Shown one piece after another: positions 1 through 46,221 of a stretch of DNA of 62,590 nucleotides (its first letter is position 1; each line of letters starts with the position of its first letter). The position numbers and the translations under genes are program-made. Location of the stretch: the NCBI GenBank assembly GCA_964537265.1, contig CAZHZE010000004.1, positions 1 through 62,590 on the forward strand, written 5' to 3'. Source of the DNA: an uncultured Gammaproteobacteria bacterium. Lineage in GTDB: Bacteria; Patescibacteriota; Patescibacteriia; Patescibacteriales; GWC2-42-12. The notes beneath the pieces are model-generated. The model had not been told where the DNA came from, searched no databases, and saw nothing but the letters and a program-made list of their open reading frames with translations.

Positions 1-2194
<2,194 letters not shown>

Positions 2195-2794: not shown

Positions 2795-3172
2795 ATGGCA
2801 CAAGACGATAAAAAAAGAAAAGTTTTTAAATTAGTAAAAGCGTCAATTATTAACGGACCCGGCCTGCGAGAAATGGAACTCGCAGTAACCGACCCCTGCC
2901 CCAATGGCAGTAGGCGCAGTATAAAATTTGATTTTGAAGAAAAAGGTTGTGAAATTATTCCGGTTGTTAATGTAACTCTTGACGGAATGACCAGGGTTAA
3001 GGAAGACCCCTATGATCGTTTAAATAACTACCTCTGGAAAATTACCGGAAAAACTAAAATTTCTTTTTGCGGTCATGCCTGGGGTAACTATGATGCAATA
3101 TTTGAAACTTTAGATTATTCGCCAATTTTCAGAAAAGGAAAAATAATCTTTACTGTTTTTGAAAAAGAATAA
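2795..3172 (+). CDS. hypothetical beta-rich protein (stand-alone SD-led cassette)
   Basis: 125-aa ORF with strong SD, own promoter and downstream terminator; no recognisable motif. Confidence 0.75.
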   Translation: MAQDDKKRKVFKLVKASIINGPGLREMELAVTDPCPNGSRRSIKFDFEEKGCEIIPVVNVTLDGMTRVKEDPYDRLNNYLWKITGKTKISFCGHAWGNYDAIFETLDYSPIFRKGKIIFTVFEKE

Positions 3173-3193
3173 TAAAGAATTATAAAAAATTTC

Positions 3194-3225
3194 GCCAGTG
3201 GGTTTAAAACACCACTGGCTTTTTT
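3194..3225 (+). terminator. intrinsic terminator
   Basis: gccagtgg/ccactggc stem plus T-tract. Confidence 0.75.
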
Positions 3226-8253: not shown

Positions 8254-9276
8254 TTATATCATTTTATCTTGCTCGGGTTTATTTTTTCCTAAATGTTTAT
8301 AGGCCGTATCAGTAGCCACCCGGCCGCGCGGCGTTCTATCTAAAAATCCTAATTGCATTAAATAAGGTTCATAAACTTCTTCGACGGTCGCGATATCCTC
8401 AGCCGCGGCCGCGGCGATAGCCGATAACCCGACCGGTCCGCCGTTAAATTTATCAATAATTACTTCTATAATTTTTCTATCTACCCAATCAAGGCCTAAA
8501 TCATCAACTTCCAAAAGTTTAAAAGCTTGTTGGCAATAATTTAAGTTAATATCTCCATTACCTTCAACCTGGCAATAATCGCGTACTCTTTTTAATAACC
8601 GATTAGCGACGCGAGGCGTGCGACGCGAACGCTTAGCGATTTCTTCGGCCGAATCATGAGGCAAATCAATGTTTAAAATCTTGGCGCTCCTGTCAATTAT
8701 TTTTTTAATATCTTTAGGTTCATAAAAATCCAAATGATAAGTCATACCGAAACGATCGCGCAAAGGCGAAGACAATAAACTAATTTTCGTAGTCGCGCCG
8801 ATAATCGTAAAACGCGGTAAATCAATACGCAAAGTTTTAGCCGACGGCCCTTTACCGATTATTATATCTAAAGCATAATCTTCCATGGCCGGATAAAGTA
8901 TTTCTTCAATGGTTTTATTAAGCCGATGAATCTCATCAATAAATAAAATATCGCCTTGATTAAGATTAGTTAAAATTGCGGCTAAGTCGCCTGATTTTTC
9001 TATCACCGGTCCAGAAGTTACTCTTATGTTAGCATCCAGCTCATTAGCAATAACATGCGCTAAAGTAGTTTTTCCTAATCCAGGCGAACCATATAATAAA
9101 ACATGCTCAATAGATTCATTTCTGCCTTGAGCCGCTTTAAGAAAAATCCGTAAATTTTCCTTAATCTTATCTTGCCCGACAAATTCGCTTAATTTCTTTG
9201 GGCGTAAAGTTAAATCCAAAGTTTTATCATCAGCCAACTCCTCAGGTTGAGTGACTCGTTCGTTTGTATCTGTCAT
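8254..9276 (-). CDS. ruvB: Holliday junction branch migration helicase RuvB
   Basis: [45 protein letters not shown]. Confidence 0.97.
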
Positions 9277-33677: not shown

Positions 33678-34511
33678 TTATTTTTTGTAAGCCTGAAGCG
33701 TATTTTTAAAAGCCATAGCAATCGTCATTGGCCCAACGCCGCCAGGTACCGGCGTAATATAACCGACTTTATCTTTAACATCTTCAAAATCAACATCGCC
33801 AACAACTTTACCATTAATATCATTAATGCCAATATCTATAATTACCGCGTCTTGTTTAATCATATCTTTTTTTATAAATTTAGGTTTTCCCACGGCCGTA
33901 ATTAAAATATCGGTTTGATTAGTTTTATCGACTAAATCTTTTTCATCGGCTTTGATCATTTCAGTTTTAGCGCCTCGGCATTTTAAAATATAGGCCAAAC
34001 TTTTTCCAAAAATATCTGAGTTAGAGATAATGCAAACTTGTTTATCTTTTAAATCGCAAGTTATACTTTTTAACATTTCTAAAACCGTAGCAAAAACCGG
34101 CGGCATAAAGCCATCAAATTCGCAGCCGCTTAATAATTTTTTTAAATTATCTGGATGAAAACCGTCGATATCTTTAGCCGGATCAAGCGCCATAATAATC
34201 GTATCAGTATCAATATTTTCCGGCAAAGGCAATTGCACTAAAATTGCGTCAATCGTTTTATCATTATTAAAACATTTTATCATTTCTAAAACTTCTTGCT
34301 CGCTAATATTGCTCGGACATTTATAAAGATGGGTATCAATACCGACTTTTTTTGCTTCTCGTTCTTTTAAATTTACATATAATTTTGAATCAGGTCGTTC
34401 ACCAATTAAAATAATAGCTAAATTAGGGCGCTTGCCTTTTAATTTAAAAATTTGTTTAGCAATATCATCTTTTATTTTTTCAGCTAATTGTTTGCCGTCG
34501 ATAATTTGCAT
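33678..34511 (-). CDS. folD: bifunctional methylenetetrahydrofolate dehydrogenase/cyclohydrolase
   Basis: IIDGK, YVNLK, ILVQLPLP, KDIDGFHP, DILITAVG, TPVPGGVGPMT. Confidence 0.95.
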   Translation of the reverse strand: MQIIDGKQLAEKIKDDIAKQIFKLKGKRPNLAIILIGERPDSKLYVNLKEREAKKVGIDTHLYKCPSNISEQEVLEMIKCFNNDKTIDAILVQLPLPENIDTDTIIMALDPAKDIDGFHPDNLKKLLSGCEFDGFMPPVFATVLEMLKSITCDLKDKQVCIISNSDIFGKSLAYILKCRGAKTEMIKADEKDLVDKTNQTDILITAVGKPKFIKKDMIKQDAVIIDIGINDINGKVVGDVDFEDVKDKVGYITPVPGGVGPMTIAMAFKNTLQAYKK

Positions 34512-34513
34512 AA

Positions 34514-35761
34514 TTAAATGCTGGGTATAGGAAATTCCAAACACATTTGTTTAACTTCTTCTTTTATTTTTTCTAAAAGCTCTATTTCTTCTCTTTGTTC
34601 AATCGCATCATTTATCCATTCTACTATTTTTTTAACTTCCGCTTGCTTCATACCGCGCGTGGTTATGGCCGCCGTTCCGAAACGAACGCCAGACGGATTC
34701 ATCGGCGGATTTGGATCATTCGGAATAGTTGAGCGGGAAACTGAAATGCCGCATCGCTCTAAAATAACTTCAACTTCTTTTCCGGAAAGATCTTTAGCTG
34801 TCATATCAACTACCATTAAATGATTATCGGTGCCATCAGAAATTACTTTATAACCTAATTTCATAAATTCTTCAGCCATGGTTTTAGCGTTAATGATCAC
34901 CTGCTTGGCATATTGTTTAAATTCCGGTTTTAAAGCTTCGCCGAAAGCAACGGCTTTGGCCGCATTTATGTGGTCGTGCGGCCCGCCTTGCATGCCCGGA
35001 AAAACTGCTCGATCGATTTGCTTGGCGAATTGTTCTTTACACATTATCATGGCGCCCCTGGGACCGCGCAAAGTTTTATGGGTCGTAGTCGAAACAACAT
35101 CAAAAATCGGCACTGGATTATTTAATTCACCAGCCGCGATTAACCCGGCCGTATGAGCAATGTCGGCGAAAGTAAAAGCGCCGACTTCATCCGCGATGTC
35201 TTTAAATTTTTGCCATTCAATTTCTCGCGAATAAGCGCTATAACCAGCCACAATCATTTTTGGTTTCTCGCGAAGTGCAATTTCTCTGACTTTATCCATA
35301 TTAATCTTACCGGTAACTGAATCAACTTCATATTGCGTAAAATTATATAGCATGCCGGAAAAATTTACCGGATGGCCGTGTGATAAATGTCCGCCATGAT
35401 CAAGCTTTAATCCTAAAACTTTATCGCCCGGTTTTAAAAACGCCATATACACGGCTGCGTTAGCCGGCGAACCGGACAAAGGCTGAACATTAACATGTTC
35501 GGCGGAAAATAATCTTTTTGCTCTTTCTCTAGCAATATTTTCCACTTCATCAATATACTGATTACCGCCATAATAACGATGGCCGGGCGTGCCTTCAGAA
35601 TATTTATTAGTTAAAACAGTGGCCATAGTTTCTAATACGGCTTTTGACGCATAATTTTCGGAAGCAATTAATTCCATTTCTTCTGTTTGCCTAGTCATTT
35701 CTCTTTTAACCGCGGCCATAACTTCTTTATCTTGTTCATTTAAATTTTTATAGCTTAACAT
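34514..35761 (-). CDS. glyA: serine hydroxymethyltransferase
   Basis: LIASENY, NKYSEG.PG.RYYGG, GGHLSHG, STTTHKTLRGPRG. Confidence 0.97.
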   Translation of the reverse strand: MLSYKNLNEQDKEVMAAVKREMTRQTEEMELIASENYASKAVLETMATVLTNKYSEGTPGHRYYGGNQYIDEVENIARERAKRLFSAEHVNVQPLSGSPANAAVYMAFLKPGDKVLGLKLDHGGHLSHGHPVNFSGMLYNFTQYEVDSVTGKINMDKVREIALREKPKMIVAGYSAYSREIEWQKFKDIADEVGAFTFADIAHTAGLIAAGELNNPVPIFDVVSTTTHKTLRGPRGAMIMCKEQFAKQIDRAVFPGMQGGPHDHINAAKAVAFGEALKPEFKQYAKQVIINAKTMAEEFMKLGYKVISDGTDNHLMVVDMTAKDLSGKEVEVILERCGISVSRSTIPNDPNPPMNPSGVRFGTAAITTRGMKQAEVKKIVEWINDAIEQREEIELLEKIKEEVKQMCLEFPIPSI

Positions 35762-42045: not shown

Positions 42046-43047
42046 TTAAATGCCTAAATTTTTCTTAACTTTTTTTATAGTCTCTTCAGCAATCGGCTTA
42101 ATTTTTTCCGCGCCATCTTTTAAAATTTGCTTAACCTCATCATCCTTAAAACTATTATATTTAATTTGAAATTCAGTTAAAAACTTTTTTACTACTTCGG
42201 CTAAATCTTTTTTAAAATCACCGTAGCCTTTGCCTTGATATTTTTTTTCTAACTCTTTCATACTTACATCAGATAAAAGCGAATAAATTGTCATCAGATT
42301 AGAAATAGCCGGTTTTTTCTTTTGATCAAATTTAATTTCCGAATCAGAATCGGTTACCGCTCGCATAATCTTTTTAGCCGCGACTTCCGGTGCGTCGGTT
42401 AAAGCAATATAATTAGCCGATGAACTAGCGCTTTTACTCATTTTTTTCGTCGGGTCGTCTAAACCCATAATTCGCGCGCCTTGTTTTCTAACCGCCGCTT
42501 CTGGTACTTTAAAAATTTTTCCATAATCGCGATTAAATCTTTGAGCTAAAGTGCGAGTTAATTCTACATGTTGCACTTGATCATCACCAACCGGCACAGC
42601 ATCAGTATTATATAATAAAATATCAGCCGCCATTAAAACCGGATAATCATAAAGACCTACTCCAACCGATTCTTGATTTTTACCAGCTTTATCTTTAAAC
42701 TGGGTCATTTTATTTAAATCTGCCATACGAGCAGTCGCGCAATTTAATATCCAAGCTAATTCCGTATGCTCCGTAATATCTGACTGCTGAAAAATAACCG
42801 ACAGCTCCGGATTTATACCAGCAGCCATATAAGTTTTTACCACGTCTAAAATGCGGCGGGATAATTCTTTAGGATCTTGCTTAACCGTAATGGCGTGATA
42901 ATCAACCACACAAAAAATGCAATTAAATTGCTTTTGCATTTCCACCCATTGCGACAAAGCGCCTAAATAATTTCCTAAATGCAAAACTCCCGAAGGTTGA
43001 ACTCCGGAAAAAATGATTTTTTTGTTATCTTTTGTTTGTGATTTCAT
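42046..43047 (-). CDS. trpS: tryptophan--tRNA ligase
   Basis: SGVQPSG.LHLGNY, YPVLMAADIL, VPVGDDQVQH, KMSKS. Confidence 0.97.
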   Translation of the reverse strand: MKSQTKDNKKIIFSGVQPSGVLHLGNYLGALSQWVEMQKQFNCIFCVVDYHAITVKQDPKELSRRILDVVKTYMAAGINPELSVIFQQSDITEHTELAWILNCATARMADLNKMTQFKDKAGKNQESVGVGLYDYPVLMAADILLYNTDAVPVGDDQVQHVELTRTLAQRFNRDYGKIFKVPEAAVRKQGARIMGLDDPTKKMSKSASSSANYIALTDAPEVAAKKIMRAVTDSDSEIKFDQKKKPAISNLMTIYSLLSDVSMKELEKKYQGKGYGDFKKDLAEVVKKFLTEFQIKYNSFKDDEVKQILKDGAEKIKPIAEETIKKVKKNLGI

Positions 43048-43080
43048 ACTTTAATTGTATATTTAATCAAAATAATTGTA

Positions 43081-43115
43081 AAGAAGCGGGGCAAATGAAT
43101 TTGCCCCGCTATTTT
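43081..43115 (-). terminator. terminator between trpB2 and trpS
   Basis: gcggggcaaa/tttgccccgc stem followed by TTCTT on minus strand. Confidence 0.6.
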
Positions 43116-44408
43116 TTACATTTTTCCGTCTAAATAATTTTCGTACGCCGCCATGTCAAAATGTCCATGCCCAGATAAATTAAATAATATTACCTTACTT
43201 TCTCCGGATAAACGGCATTTTTCTGCTTCATCAAAAACCGCTTTAATGGCATGGGCTGATTCTGGCGCTGGAATAATTCCTTGGCTTCTCGCAAATTTCA
43301 CCGCCGCTTCAAAAATTTCTTTTTGACCATAAGCTACAGCTTCAACTAAACCTTCGTCTTTTAGTAAACTTACTAATGGCGCAGCGCCATGATATCTTAA
43401 ACCACCTGCATGAATAGACGGCGGGACAAATTCATAACCCATAGTATACATTCTTATGAGAGGAGTTAAACCAGCGATATCCCCGAAGTCATATTTATAC
43501 TCACCTTTTGTTAATGATGGACATGATGTTGGTTCAGCCGCTAAAACCCGCAAATTTTTCTTTTTGCCTTTTAACTTGTCACGCAAAAATGGAAAAGCAA
43601 TACCAGCTAAATTACTGCCGCCGCCATGGCAACCAATAATTATATCCGGATAATCGCCGGCGATTTCCATTTGTTTTATAGCTTCTTGCCCGATAATAGT
43701 TTGATGATGCAAAACATGATTTAAGACCGAACCTAAGGCGTATTTAGTATCATCATGTTTAGCCGCGTCTTCAACTGCTTCGGCAATCGCCATACCTAAA
43801 CTCCCGGAAGTCTCTGGCTGCTCGGCTAAAATTTTCTTGCCGGCTTCAGTAAGGTTAGACGGACTTGCAATACATTCAGCTCCATAAGTTCTCATCATTA
43901 TTTTACGATATGGTTTTTGTTCATAGCTAGATTTAACCATATAAACCGTTAAACCTAAACCAAAATAATTACAAGCAAAACCTAAAGCCGAGCCCCATTG
44001 ACCAGCGCCGGTTTCAGTAGTTAATCTTTTTACACCGGCTTGTTTATTATAGTAAGCTTGCGGTAAAGCCGTATTTAATTTATGGCTGCCGACAGGACTA
44101 ACGCCTTCATATTTATAATATATTTTGGCTGGCGTCTTTAATTCTTTTTCTAATCTAGTCGCTCGAATTAACGGACTTGGTCGATATATTGTATAAGCTT
44201 TTCTAACTTCTTCCGGAATTTCTATCATGCTTTCACTCGACATTTCCTGCTTAATTAATTCCATCGGAAACAGCGGCGCTAAATCTTCTGGCTTTAAAGG
44301 CTCTTTTGTGCCCGGATGAAGCGGCGGGTCTAACGGTCGCGGTAAATCCGAAACAATATTATAATAATGTGTTGGCATGTCTTTTTGATCTAAAAATATC
44401 ATTGGCAT
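43116..44408 (-). CDS. trpB2: TrpB-like PLP enzyme TrpB2 (stand-alone, indole-salvage type)
   Basis: [62 protein letters not shown]. Confidence 0.92.
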
Positions 44409-44583
44409 AAAATAAAATTTAATAATTAAATAAAACTAACCCTAGCTAGCTTCGCCAAAATTCTCTACTTTTATTTTTAAAATAAAATTTTTTCATATAA
44501 ATATATTTAAATTAATTAATTTCAGAATTGGCGGAAAACGAAATAAAATATAATTTCGTTTTCCGCGCATAGATTGGCATGGC

Positions 44584-44745
44584 TTATTGCCAGCCAGGTT
44601 TACTCATACCCTTATTAACTTTATTGCTGCTTTTTTTATCTTTTTCTTTTTCACATTCCGGACAAACTAATTTACTTTCGTTGCCCCAACCCAATGCCAT
44701 TTCCTTAACTATCATTTTTACTCCTGAATGTTTACTACATTCCAT
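44584..44745 (-). CDS. 53-aa Zn-ribbon-like protein (not in the ORF track)
   Basis: MECSKHSGVKMIVKEMALGWGNESKLVCPECEKEKDKKSSNKVNKGMSKPGWQ; GGAGGG SD 8 nt upstream; CxxH plus CPEC. Confidence 0.6.
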   Translation of the reverse strand: MECSKHSGVKMIVKEMALGWGNESKLVCPECEKEKDKKSSNKVNKGMSKPGWQ

Positions 44746-44790
44746 AATTTTTTCCCTCCATATTTTTTTATAAAGATCATTTTAACAAAC

Positions 44791-45056
44791 AAAAAAACCT
44801 CCCATCTCTTAGGCATAGCCAAACTATGCTTAAGGGACAGAAGGTTATTCCGTGTTGCCACCCTTATTCCGAAAATAAAAAAACGCTTTCGAGCGTTTTA
44901 TTTTCGCTCATCGACTCCACCTTAATGGCGACATCGATTATCCTATGATTACGGAGGAAGCCGAGTTAACACTAACGCATTAACCACTCTTTAAGTTCAG
45001 ACCCAACCCCGATATAATTACCGGGATCTGAACGAGTTTTACGATTTTTAAGTTCT
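44791..45056 (-). promoter_or_regulatory. T-box riboswitch, probably Trp-specific, transcriptional
   Basis: T-box AAGGGTGGCAACACGG at 44864-44849; antiterminator overlapping a terminator with T7 tract; short stem at 45033-44995 with UGG in a bulge. Confidence 0.8.
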
Positions 45057-45062
45057 AAAACT

Positions 45063-45090
45063 AGTATAGCAAAAACAAAAAATTTGTCAA
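45063..45090 (-). promoter_or_regulatory. promoter of the T-box leader
   Basis: TTGACA-16-TATACT with extended TG. Confidence 0.7.
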
Positions 45091-45092
45091 AT

Positions 45093-46106
45093 TTATTTTA
45101 ACTCTAAATTACTATCAGTTTTTAATTTCTGCCATTGAGTAAATTTTTTCCTCTTAACTCTAAAATAACCAGCCGTAGCGATCATGGCTGCATTATCTGT
45201 ACAATATTTAAATTCTGGAATTATTAATTTAGCGTCATTTAATTTATTTTTTACTGCTTCTCCTAACTGGCTTCTTAATTCAATATTTGCTGCCACGCCA
45301 CCGGAGAGCATTATATTTTTACAATCATATTTTAAGGCCGCTTTAATAGTTTTAAGAACCAAAACTTCGGCTACGGCTTTTTGAAATTCGTAAGCATAAT
45401 CTGGAACTTTCTTTTTCCAATTTTTATCTTTTTGTATTTCATATAATAGCGCCGTTTTTAATCCGGAAAAAGAAAAATCAAAATCACCGGAATCACGCAT
45501 TGGCCGCGGCAATTTAATTTTTAACTTTTCACTTTTATCTTTTAACTTAGCCGCGCTAGCGGCGATTGCTGGTCCACCCGGATAACCAATATTTAAAAGT
45601 TGCGCCGCTTTATCAAAAGCTTCACCGGCTGCATCATCTCGCGTTTCCCCTAATAATTTATATTTTCCATGCCCGGTTATTAAAATTAACATAGTATGAC
45701 CGCCGGATACAGTTAAAATTAACGCGGGAAATTTCGGCTTGTTATCTATGAAATTAGCGTAGATATGCCCTTCAATATGATTAATCGCCACGGCTGGCAT
45801 TTTCCAGGTATAAGCTAAAGTTTTAGCGGTTTCCACTCCAACCAAAAGAGAAGTTACTAGCCCGGGCCCAGTTGTTACTGCAATAGCATCTATTTTTTTT
45901 ATTCCTTTAACTGCTTCATTTACCACCGGTAAAATATTTAAAACATGCTCACGCGCCGCCACCTCAGGCACCACGCCGCCATATTTTTTATGTATTTCAA
46001 TTTGTGAAGAAACTACATTTGATAAAACTTTAACTTTTTCTCCGCTACAGCTAATAACGGCTGCTGCGGTTTCATCGCATGAAGTTTCAATGCCTAATAT
46101 AATCAT
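45093..46106 (-). CDS. tsaD: tRNA N6-adenosine threonylcarbamoyltransferase
   Basis: ILGIETSCDET, HKKYGGVVPEVAAREH, NHIEGH, ETRDDAAGEAFDK, TDNAAMIA. Confidence 0.97.
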   Translation of the reverse strand: MIILGIETSCDETAAAVISCSGEKVKVLSNVVSSQIEIHKKYGGVVPEVAAREHVLNILPVVNEAVKGIKKIDAIAVTTGPGLVTSLLVGVETAKTLAYTWKMPAVAINHIEGHIYANFIDNKPKFPALILTVSGGHTMLILITGHGKYKLLGETRDDAAGEAFDKAAQLLNIGYPGGPAIAASAAKLKDKSEKLKIKLPRPMRDSGDFDFSFSGLKTALLYEIQKDKNWKKKVPDYAYEFQKAVAEVLVLKTIKAALKYDCKNIMLSGGVAANIELRSQLGEAVKNKLNDAKLIIPEFKYCTDNAAMIATAGYFRVKRKKFTQWQKLKTDSNLELK

Positions 46107-46221
46107 AAAATTTATCTTATCTAATAACACTCAAAAAGACAAGATGACTTTACAAAATCCCCTTAAAAGTGCAAAATATAAGGGACTTACAAAATAATTA
46201 ATAACCGGCTATAATGTAATT

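Follow-up and report, generated by a model that had tools for sequence, protein, structure and literature searches.

The window analyzed here, a stretch of 62,590 nucleotides (nt) from contig CAZHZE010000004.1, carries on its minus strand a leader of about 270 nt (45059-44791, from the 5′ leader to the U-run of a terminator), followed by genes for TrpB2, a TrpB-like pyridoxal phosphate-dependent enzyme (44408-43116), and TrpS, the tryptophan--tRNA ligase (43047-42046). We consider it highly likely that this leader is a T-box riboswitch that responds to tRNA-Trp by transcription attenuation and that represents a structural class specific to Patescibacteria. A preliminary description, made from the sequence alone, had read the locus as a compact-stem Trp T-box with transcription attenuation over a TrpB2/TrpS salvage operon; comparative evidence supports the core of this reading, although the terminator does not lie directly before trpB2. 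The promoter, T-box, antiterminator and terminator that it listed were all found in their places on the minus strand, as were trpB2 (NF009057, 730 bits; TIGR01415, 657 bits) and, after it, trpS (TIGR00233, 373 bits).

The leader is recognizable by the Rfam T-box model RF00230, which matches positions 45059-44830 with a score of 39.8 bits (E = 2.3e-5 over the full window, 3e-7 locally) and is the sole cis-regulatory match in the window under E-value reporting. The use of Infernal with RF00230, which the preliminary description had put forward as a check, hence returned a significant match, albeit one under the gathering score of 93 bits. At Rfam gathering thresholds the window gives only rRNA and tRNAs, with no T-box, and none of 24 leaders of the class that were tested reached the threshold, their scores ranging from 25 to 65 bits; routine annotation therefore overlooks the leader. 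The RF00230 alignment recognizes the T-box sequence AAUAAGGGUGGCAACACGG, stem III, stem II and the IIA/B region, whereas 40 model positions of stem I are exchanged for 22 inserted bases. A covariance model of our own (R1, described below) matches the leader with 101 bits over 45046-44934, and the fold of the leader is more stable than that of 200 out of 200 shuffled sequences (z = -5.3).

Stem I is a compact hairpin of 39 nt (45033-44995), whose lower and upper stems both covary across 100 sequences. Its lower stem of 7 bp (GUUCAGA/UCUGAAC) is followed by an unpaired or wobble U that is invariant in the family, and its upper stem, likewise of 7 bp (CCCGGUA/UAUCGGG), is closed by the loop AUUA. 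Between the two, on the 3′ side, the bulge G-U-UGG-G presents a Trp codon, UGG (45005-45003), as the specifier; in the corresponding columns 174-176 of alignment A2, U is found in 94/94, G in 92/94 and G in 94/94 sequences, with G as the following base in 92/94. The minimum free energy fold and covariation extend stem I to a basal helix (45037-44986 in total), in which ACUC (45037-45034) pairs with GAGU (44989-44986), one of these pairs covarying between CG (54 sequences) and UA (40); the 5-nt bulge UUAAA (44994-44990) separates stem I from the 3′ strand of the basal helix. The window version has neither an AG bulge nor the distal T-loop platform that binds the tRNA elbow, and the upper stems of the family, with 4-11 bp and variable loops that are mostly tetraloops, do not provide such a platform either. 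The boundaries, the length, the bulged UGG and the missing long apical region are thus exactly as first described.

Beyond stem I, the elements of the T-box core are retained in order. Stem II (44985-44964) is a plain hairpin that combines GGUUAA/UUAACU with a conserved C-G pair and conserved tandem U.G and G.U pairs under an RNNA tetraloop; compensatory changes occur at 7 of its 9 pairs. It is followed by a nearly invariant stem IIA/B pseudoknot, CGG-CUUCCU-CCG ... AGGA with an F-box-like CCGUAA (44963-44941), one pair of which nevertheless covaries (UA in 91 sequences, CG in 4, GC in 3). Between this pseudoknot and stem III lies a helix that is not part of the Rfam T-box consensus and that is a class-specific linker helix: AUCGA-UGUC and GAG-UCGAU flank a hairpin (44938-44910), 89 of 108 leaders have a 5-bp complement here, under the family pattern A-YYGA-UGUC...GAG-UCRRU, and the arms covary (ACUGA/UCAGU, AUCAA/UUGAU, AUCGA/UCGAU, AUUGA/UCAAU). 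Stem III (44905-44871) contains a short GC hairpin followed by seven U residues (44883-44877), which our scan flagged as terminator-like. A hairpin with covarying stems and a run of six to eight U residues is found at this place in 53 of 108 members, the window included, 10-125 nt and mostly 13-35 nt before the T-box GGUGG; to judge from its sequence, it may serve as a programmed pause signal.

The T-box sequence and the antiterminator occupy 44866-44832 (Rfam alignment, a fold of -9.7 kcal/mol and the bulges of the family). The antiterminator consists of helix A1 (AAGGG/CCCUU), the 7-nt bulge UGGCAAC (44860-44854) and the helix ACGGAA..UUCUGU; the bulges of the family read UGGUACC in 50 leaders, UGGCACC in 43 and UGGCAAC in 8. 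Its 3′ strand is at the same time the 5′ arm of an intrinsic terminator (hairpin 44846-44796 followed by U7, together 44846-44791), so that the two folds are mutually exclusive. The terminator has 22 pairs with three 1-nt internal mismatches and a fold of -26.3 kcal/mol; an antiterminator that is weaker than the terminator is the usual energy balance of a T-box. A hairpin ending at a U-run and overlapped by an antiterminator was found in 105 of 106 leaders (median -29.5 kcal/mol), in a count that required a hairpin and not a U-run alone. The ribosome-binding site GGAGGG of the first open reading frame (ORF) is unpaired and situated about 30 nt past the terminator U-run in the window, and the leader ends in a terminator with its U-run in place of the sequestrator helix that covers the ribosome-binding site in translational T-boxes. 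The terminators and the distant ribosome-binding site together indicate that the class acts on transcription.

This arrangement recurs in relatives, which are referred to below by locus numbers where necessary. A search based on TrpB2 led to L001-L003, three loci of Patescibacteria in which RF00230 matches weakly (25-65 bits) upstream of trpB2. Scanning for the exact pattern of the conserved pseudoknot, CCTCCGTAAYCAYAGGNTAA, yielded 111 stretches, about 105 of which share the stem I design and nearly all of which come from bins of Patescibacteria, also known as CPR (Parcubacteria, Staskawiczbacteria, Falkowbacteria, Moranbacteria, Saccharibacteria and others). A few matches are labeled otherwise. 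A single one from Clostridiaceae lies inside a gene and is a chance match. The common stem I design could be parsed in about 102 of 106 leaders: lower stems of 5-7 bp (45 different sequences) with the invariant U after them, and upper stems that begin with CC(C/U), extend over 4-11 bp (74 different sequences), carry mostly a tetraloop and lead into R-Y-UGG-G. Three leaders (L119, L124, L174) have a canonical GAA-UGG-R specifier loop instead, and L169 lacks an upper stem and carries UGG in its terminal loop.

Two alignments bear on the structure. MAFFT, applied to 20 leaders without structural information, gave an alignment in which 94.2% of cells are paired and compensatory changes occur in 16 of 30 pairs, a result equaled by none of 500 shuffles, whereas pairing falls to 35-50% when the partners are slid as a control. 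The covariance model R1 was built from this alignment; it was searched against 100 sources, of which 96 matched strongly (60-128 bits) and four weakly (23-36 bits), and it matched none of 77 TrpB2 loci from phyla outside Patescibacteria. In the 100-sequence alignment produced by R1, which is fitted to the model and hence biased to the proposed structure, 98.1% of cells are paired and 22 of 25 pairs are compensatory (517 cells), again with 0 of 500 shuffles equal.

The genes that follow the leaders speak for tryptophan as the amino acid sensed. These encode TrpS in 19 cases, TrpB or TrpB2 in 18, TrpD-like proteins (Glycos_transf_3) in 15 and component I of anthranilate synthase (TrpE) in 6, so that TrpE and TrpD-like genes are under the control of other members of the family. 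A second set has no obvious role in Trp metabolism: a GCS2/amidoligase-like protein of about 250 amino acids (15 loci), often followed by an AstE/AspA-like deacylase (9), radical SAM/SPASM proteins (6), BtpA (3) and a sulfotransferase-like protein (for example at L130, L156, L149 and L182, within L083-L190). The tRNA provides a further line of evidence. Twelve tRNA-Trp(CCA) genes are linked to leaders, with G73 in 11 and A73 in 1, and the T-box bulge begins with UGGC or UGGU in 106/106 leaders and with UGGA or UGGG in none. The leaders thereby combine a UGGN bulge that matches the NCCA end of the tRNA, an overlapping terminator and a codon that fits the regulated genes. Taken together, a UGG that is invariant amid varying helices, a Trp regulon and the match to the tRNA identify the specifier as Trp, in agreement with the preliminary description.

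Often, tRNA-Trp(CCA) genes are situated no more than a few hundred bases from a leader (L081, L083, L093, L106, L129, L130, L151 and others), and in L003 the tRNA-Trp gene (3131-3202) stands directly 3′ of trpB2. The leader is also found in bins labeled "uncultured Gammaproteobacteria" or "Lysobacteraceae" (L083, L095, L110, L116, L117, L130, L148, L151, L158, L159); these labels are probably wrong. The TrpB2 of L159 is 89% identical to that of the window. L001 additionally contains two near-identical canonical long-stem T-boxes (925-1150 and 8726-8953; 107-109 bits), whose specifier position reads CGC (Arg) by eye. As they share an organism with the short form, the short stem belongs to the Trp leader and not to the organism.

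Taking these findings together, we propose the following mechanism. Transcription would start from a sigma-70-type promoter, TTGACA-16-TATACT with a TG extension (45090-45063, minus strand; 11 of 12 consensus matches), and TTGACA promoters of a similar kind are also present upstream of related leaders. The nascent leader would fold into the truncated stem I, displaying UGG in the 3′ bulge, and then into stem II and the IIA/B pseudoknot, and the anticodon of tRNA-Trp, CCA, would pair with the UGG. An uncharged tRNA could also pair, through its 3′ GCCA, with UGGC in the T-box bulge and stabilize the weak antiterminator, such that the polymerase would read on into a 53-amino-acid ORF, a short upstream ORF, trpB2 and trpS. 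With charged tRNA, the far more stable terminator would form and transcription would stop at U7. Stem I does not extend far enough to touch the tRNA elbow, and recognition would consequently have to depend on the codon-anticodon contact. Stem II and the pseudoknot probably strengthen this contact, as they do in the ileS T-boxes of Actinobacteria, and the linker helix and the pause-like hairpin of stem III with its U-run may also help. It is further possible that the pairing is extended to 5 bp, with UUGGG opposite U33-C-C-A-A37 of the tRNA.

Some observations weigh against this interpretation. The Rfam score lies below the gathering threshold, and the larger of the two alignments carries the bias noted above. 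In the window no K-turn (GA motif) is recognizable at the base of stem I, which has a contiguous 5′ strand and the 3′ bulge UUAAA, whereas many relatives have UGA...GA sequences compatible with a K-turn at this place. The AGUA/GAA S-turn consensus is likewise not evident on the 5′ strand of stem II; with both motifs wanting, the Actinobacterial mode of compensation is presumptive for this leader. The locus sequence is present in DNA metagenomes from wastewater, bioreactors and freshwater, and its matches are confined to DNA, with none in an RNA run. Finally, trpB2 and trpS might escape the control of the leader, given the conserved hairpin behind the small ORF and, ahead of trpS, a further hairpin with a promoter-like site.

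The last point concerns the roughly 385 nt between the T-box terminator and trpB2, which hold three elements absent from the preliminary description. The first gene after the T-box is a Cys-rich ORF of 53 amino acids (44745-44584) with the above-mentioned strong GGAGGG ribosome-binding site. Its product has zinc-ribbon-like CxxH...CPEC, GWG and C-terminal GW motifs and homologs at the equivalent position in L120 and L159; the protein database contains 3 close homologs only, all unnamed, and neither Pfam nor NCBIfam gave a match. Similar ORFs of 40-75 amino acids, Cys-rich with two CxxC-type knuckles and bearing G[WF]G or C-terminal W motifs, come first after 24 of 103 leaders. The second element is a 14-bp hairpin (44569-44529; -21.4 kcal/mol) with no U-run behind it, which is retained in L206, where two adjacent A-U pairs have become G-C. 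The third is a 16-codon upstream ORF (44496-44446) encoding MKKFYFKNKSREFWRS, which contains one UGG codon (44457-44455) and whose stop lies 37 nt ahead of the trpB2 start. A GC-rich 11-bp hairpin directly after the trpB2 stop, followed by the promoter-like TTTACA-17-TACAAT (43110-43054), separates trpB2 from trpS, and trpS may on this account have an expression of its own.

The upstream ORF has a conserved peptide core, [FY][FY]FKN[KR]xxE[FY]WR (..KNKxxEFWR), which is found directly before trpB2 in 13 Patescibacteria loci (L097, L159, L091, L104, L001, L003, L147, L131, L127, L098, L206, L277 and L209, in the last of which it precedes a canonical trpB and not trpB2). These ORFs have 15-30 codons, with synonymous third-position changes and no conservation past WR, and the motif is missing before 75 TrpB2 genes of other phyla. 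A degenerate DNA scan of genome contigs for the upstream ORF yielded mostly chance matches, about 70 being expected from the information content of the pattern, and its only real additions were L206, L277 and L209; a recurrent match in Saccharimonas proved to be out of frame within a coding gene. By its sequence, the upstream ORF is a candidate Trp-sensing leader or arrest peptide.

A parallel is suggested by the Bacillus subtilis at (rtpA) operon, in which a tRNA-Trp T-box and a leader peptide with Trp codons control the 53-amino-acid zinc protein anti-TRAP. In either system a single leader region brings together a Trp T-box, a short Trp-codon upstream ORF and a Cys-rich protein of small size, so that two layers could read the charging of tRNA-Trp. 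They differ in the order of the elements, in the single Trp codon and conserved peptide of the upstream ORF described here and in the regulated enzyme, which is TrpB2. The small ORF was considered as an anti-TRAP homolog and rejected, as it has no sequence support and no Pfam match, the anti-TRAP family included.

A more far-reaching version of our proposal can be offered tentatively, as a less probable reading. Herein the leaders would constitute a platform-free, cotranscriptional T-box class, in which the pairing of UUGGG with U33-A37, the G.U pairs of stem II, the linker helix and the stem III pause compensate for the lost elbow contact, and which heads a two-tier Trp cascade. The previously undescribed ..KNKxxEFWR peptide before trpB or trpB2 would form the second tier, and the targets would include the small G[WF]G zinc-ribbon proteins.

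The same downstream elements could also be taken to mean that the T-box governs mainly the 53-amino-acid ORF, with trpB2 and trpS largely separate under the Trp-codon upstream ORF and an internal trpS promoter. We regard this as unlikely. The conserved 14-bp hairpin behind the small ORF, the hairpin and TTTACA-17-TACAAT ahead of trpS and the independent conservation of the upstream ORF before trpB genes are all consistent with it, but the 14-bp hairpin lacks a U-run and no promoter-like site was found on the minus strand between the small ORF and trpB2. Some relatives, moreover, have the upstream ORF and trpB2 (L097, L003) or trpS (L176, L120) immediately behind the T-box terminator, and the former arrangement supports T-box control of trpB2 in the lineage. 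With the ORFs, hairpins and promoter-like site that intervene in the window itself, read-through from the T-box probably, rather than certainly, extends to trpB2 and trpS here.

It is about equally improbable that the tRNA elbow is still docked, by a different element, such as the linker helix with its hairpin or the hairpin of the three-way junction in relatives, in which case the class would not be truly platform-free. The covarying linker helix, specific to the class and present in 89 of the 108 leaders, and the extra hairpin at the stem I base of many members might be so understood; against this, the inner hairpins vary in sequence and length with no conserved T-loop motif seen, and the window has no three-way junction.

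On the RF00230 alignment, a different specifier might be read. It places GAA-CUU-A, near the bulge UUAAA, at the specifier-loop position, whereby CUU (Leu) would address another tRNA. We discarded this reading, which we hold to be most improbable, because the triplet is not conserved among the closest relatives (L120 and L159 have CAU at this position) and because the alignment, in pairing AAACUC with GGGUCU at the cost of one mismatch, skips and breaks the perfect 7-bp stem. Bacterial tRNA-Leu is expected to have A73, for which the bulge UGGC is unsuited, and it is UGG that is invariant before a regulon of Trp genes. The view that the leader is a decayed, nonfunctional T-box remnant or a purely translational regulator, to which the low Rfam score and the truncation of stem I and the K-turn might lend color, has an equally slight chance of being right, given compensatory changes throughout more than 100 members, conserved U-run terminators and a small-ORF ribosome-binding site that is about 30 nt away and not sequestered.

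Several likenesses and differences emerge on comparison with known T-boxes, for which we took as the canonical set Bacillus subtilis tyrS and glyQS and the Trp-specific Streptococcus suis trpX (PMC9382623). Like the canonical class I transcriptional T-boxes, the leaders have a specifier that lies 3′ in a loop of stem I and has a purine after it, and they share stem II, a IIA/B pseudoknot, stem III, a 7-nt UGGN bulge, a mutually exclusive terminator and targets that comprise an aminoacyl-tRNA synthetase and biosynthesis genes. Unlike in them, stem I continues for just 4-11 bp past the specifier and has neither the AG bulge nor the distal-loop platform for the elbow; the specifier loop is a 5-nt bulge without the AGUA/GAA S-turn, and the window lacks a K-turn; stem II takes the form of a simple hairpin containing tandem G.U pairs, and the linker carries an additional helix. 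Transcriptional T-boxes generally need a long stem I with an elbow-binding platform, whereas a short or "ultrashort" stem I is typical of translational T-boxes of Actinobacteria, in which stem II and the pseudoknot compensate (PMC7583486, PMC11297988). The short stem, described in the preliminary account as atypical, is so inasmuch as the platform is absent, although T-boxes with short stems were already known from the translational Actinobacterial type, to which the literature that we read confines the loss of the platform. With the ileS T-boxes of Mycobacterium tuberculosis and Nocardia farcinica, which have an intermediate or ultrashort stem I, the class shares a truncated stem I without a platform and the retention of stem II and IIA/B, and L169, with UGG in a terminal loop, resembles the ultrashort ileS type. 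The Actinobacterial forms, however, sequester the ribosome-binding site, while the Patescibacteria class ends in strong intrinsic terminators, reads Trp instead of Ile, belongs to another phylum and has no S-turn consensus in stem II.

We therefore regard these leaders as a structurally novel form of the known T-box riboswitch that is specific to both Patescibacteria and Trp and that combines a short stem I with a terminator. The class falls short of the Rfam threshold, lacks the platform on stem I and, as far as the window is concerned, has no K-turn, and it keeps the logic of specifier and discriminator. More than 100 platform-free, terminator-bearing and covarying members would constitute a natural counter-example to the view that T-boxes acting on transcription require the platform of a long stem I for rapid tRNA capture and that the translational type alone can dispense with it (PMC7583486, PMC11297988). 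They also extend the range of T-boxes to Patescibacteria; the literature that we searched contained no paper connecting T-boxes with Patescibacteria or CPR. Because the gathering threshold misses the whole class, riboswitch censuses of reduced genomes undercount. Further, the regulon draws attention to Trp-linked genes of unclear role, namely those for the TrpD-like, GCS2/amidoligase-like with AstE/AspA-like and radical SAM/SPASM proteins, the G[WF]G ORFs and the EFWR peptide.

TrpB2 produces Trp from indole and serine. In keeping with the preliminary description, which had noted the lack of trpA and of other trp genes, no further trp gene was found among the 27 ORFs scanned in the window, which at 62 kb is too small to judge auxotrophy. 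The window also contains glyA (34514-35761), as had been reported, and folD (33678-34544), and tsaD (45093-46130; TIGR03723) adjoins the T-box locus, the elements of which lie downstream of it, all on the minus strand.

Two minor observations complete the picture. In most members of the leader family an additional hairpin is inserted between the lower stem of stem I and the basal helix, creating a three-way junction (e.g., L001, 3240-3275, and many of L081-L190); in the subgroup that comprises the window, L097, L120, L159, L163 and L096, a 5-nt bulge, YUAAW, replaces the junction or the K-turn-like sequence. At the other end of the window, a partial 23S rRNA gene (1-2194, minus strand) shows several large insertions relative to the bacterial model, examples being one of 55 nt and, close to the 5′ end, an expansion by about 50 nt.

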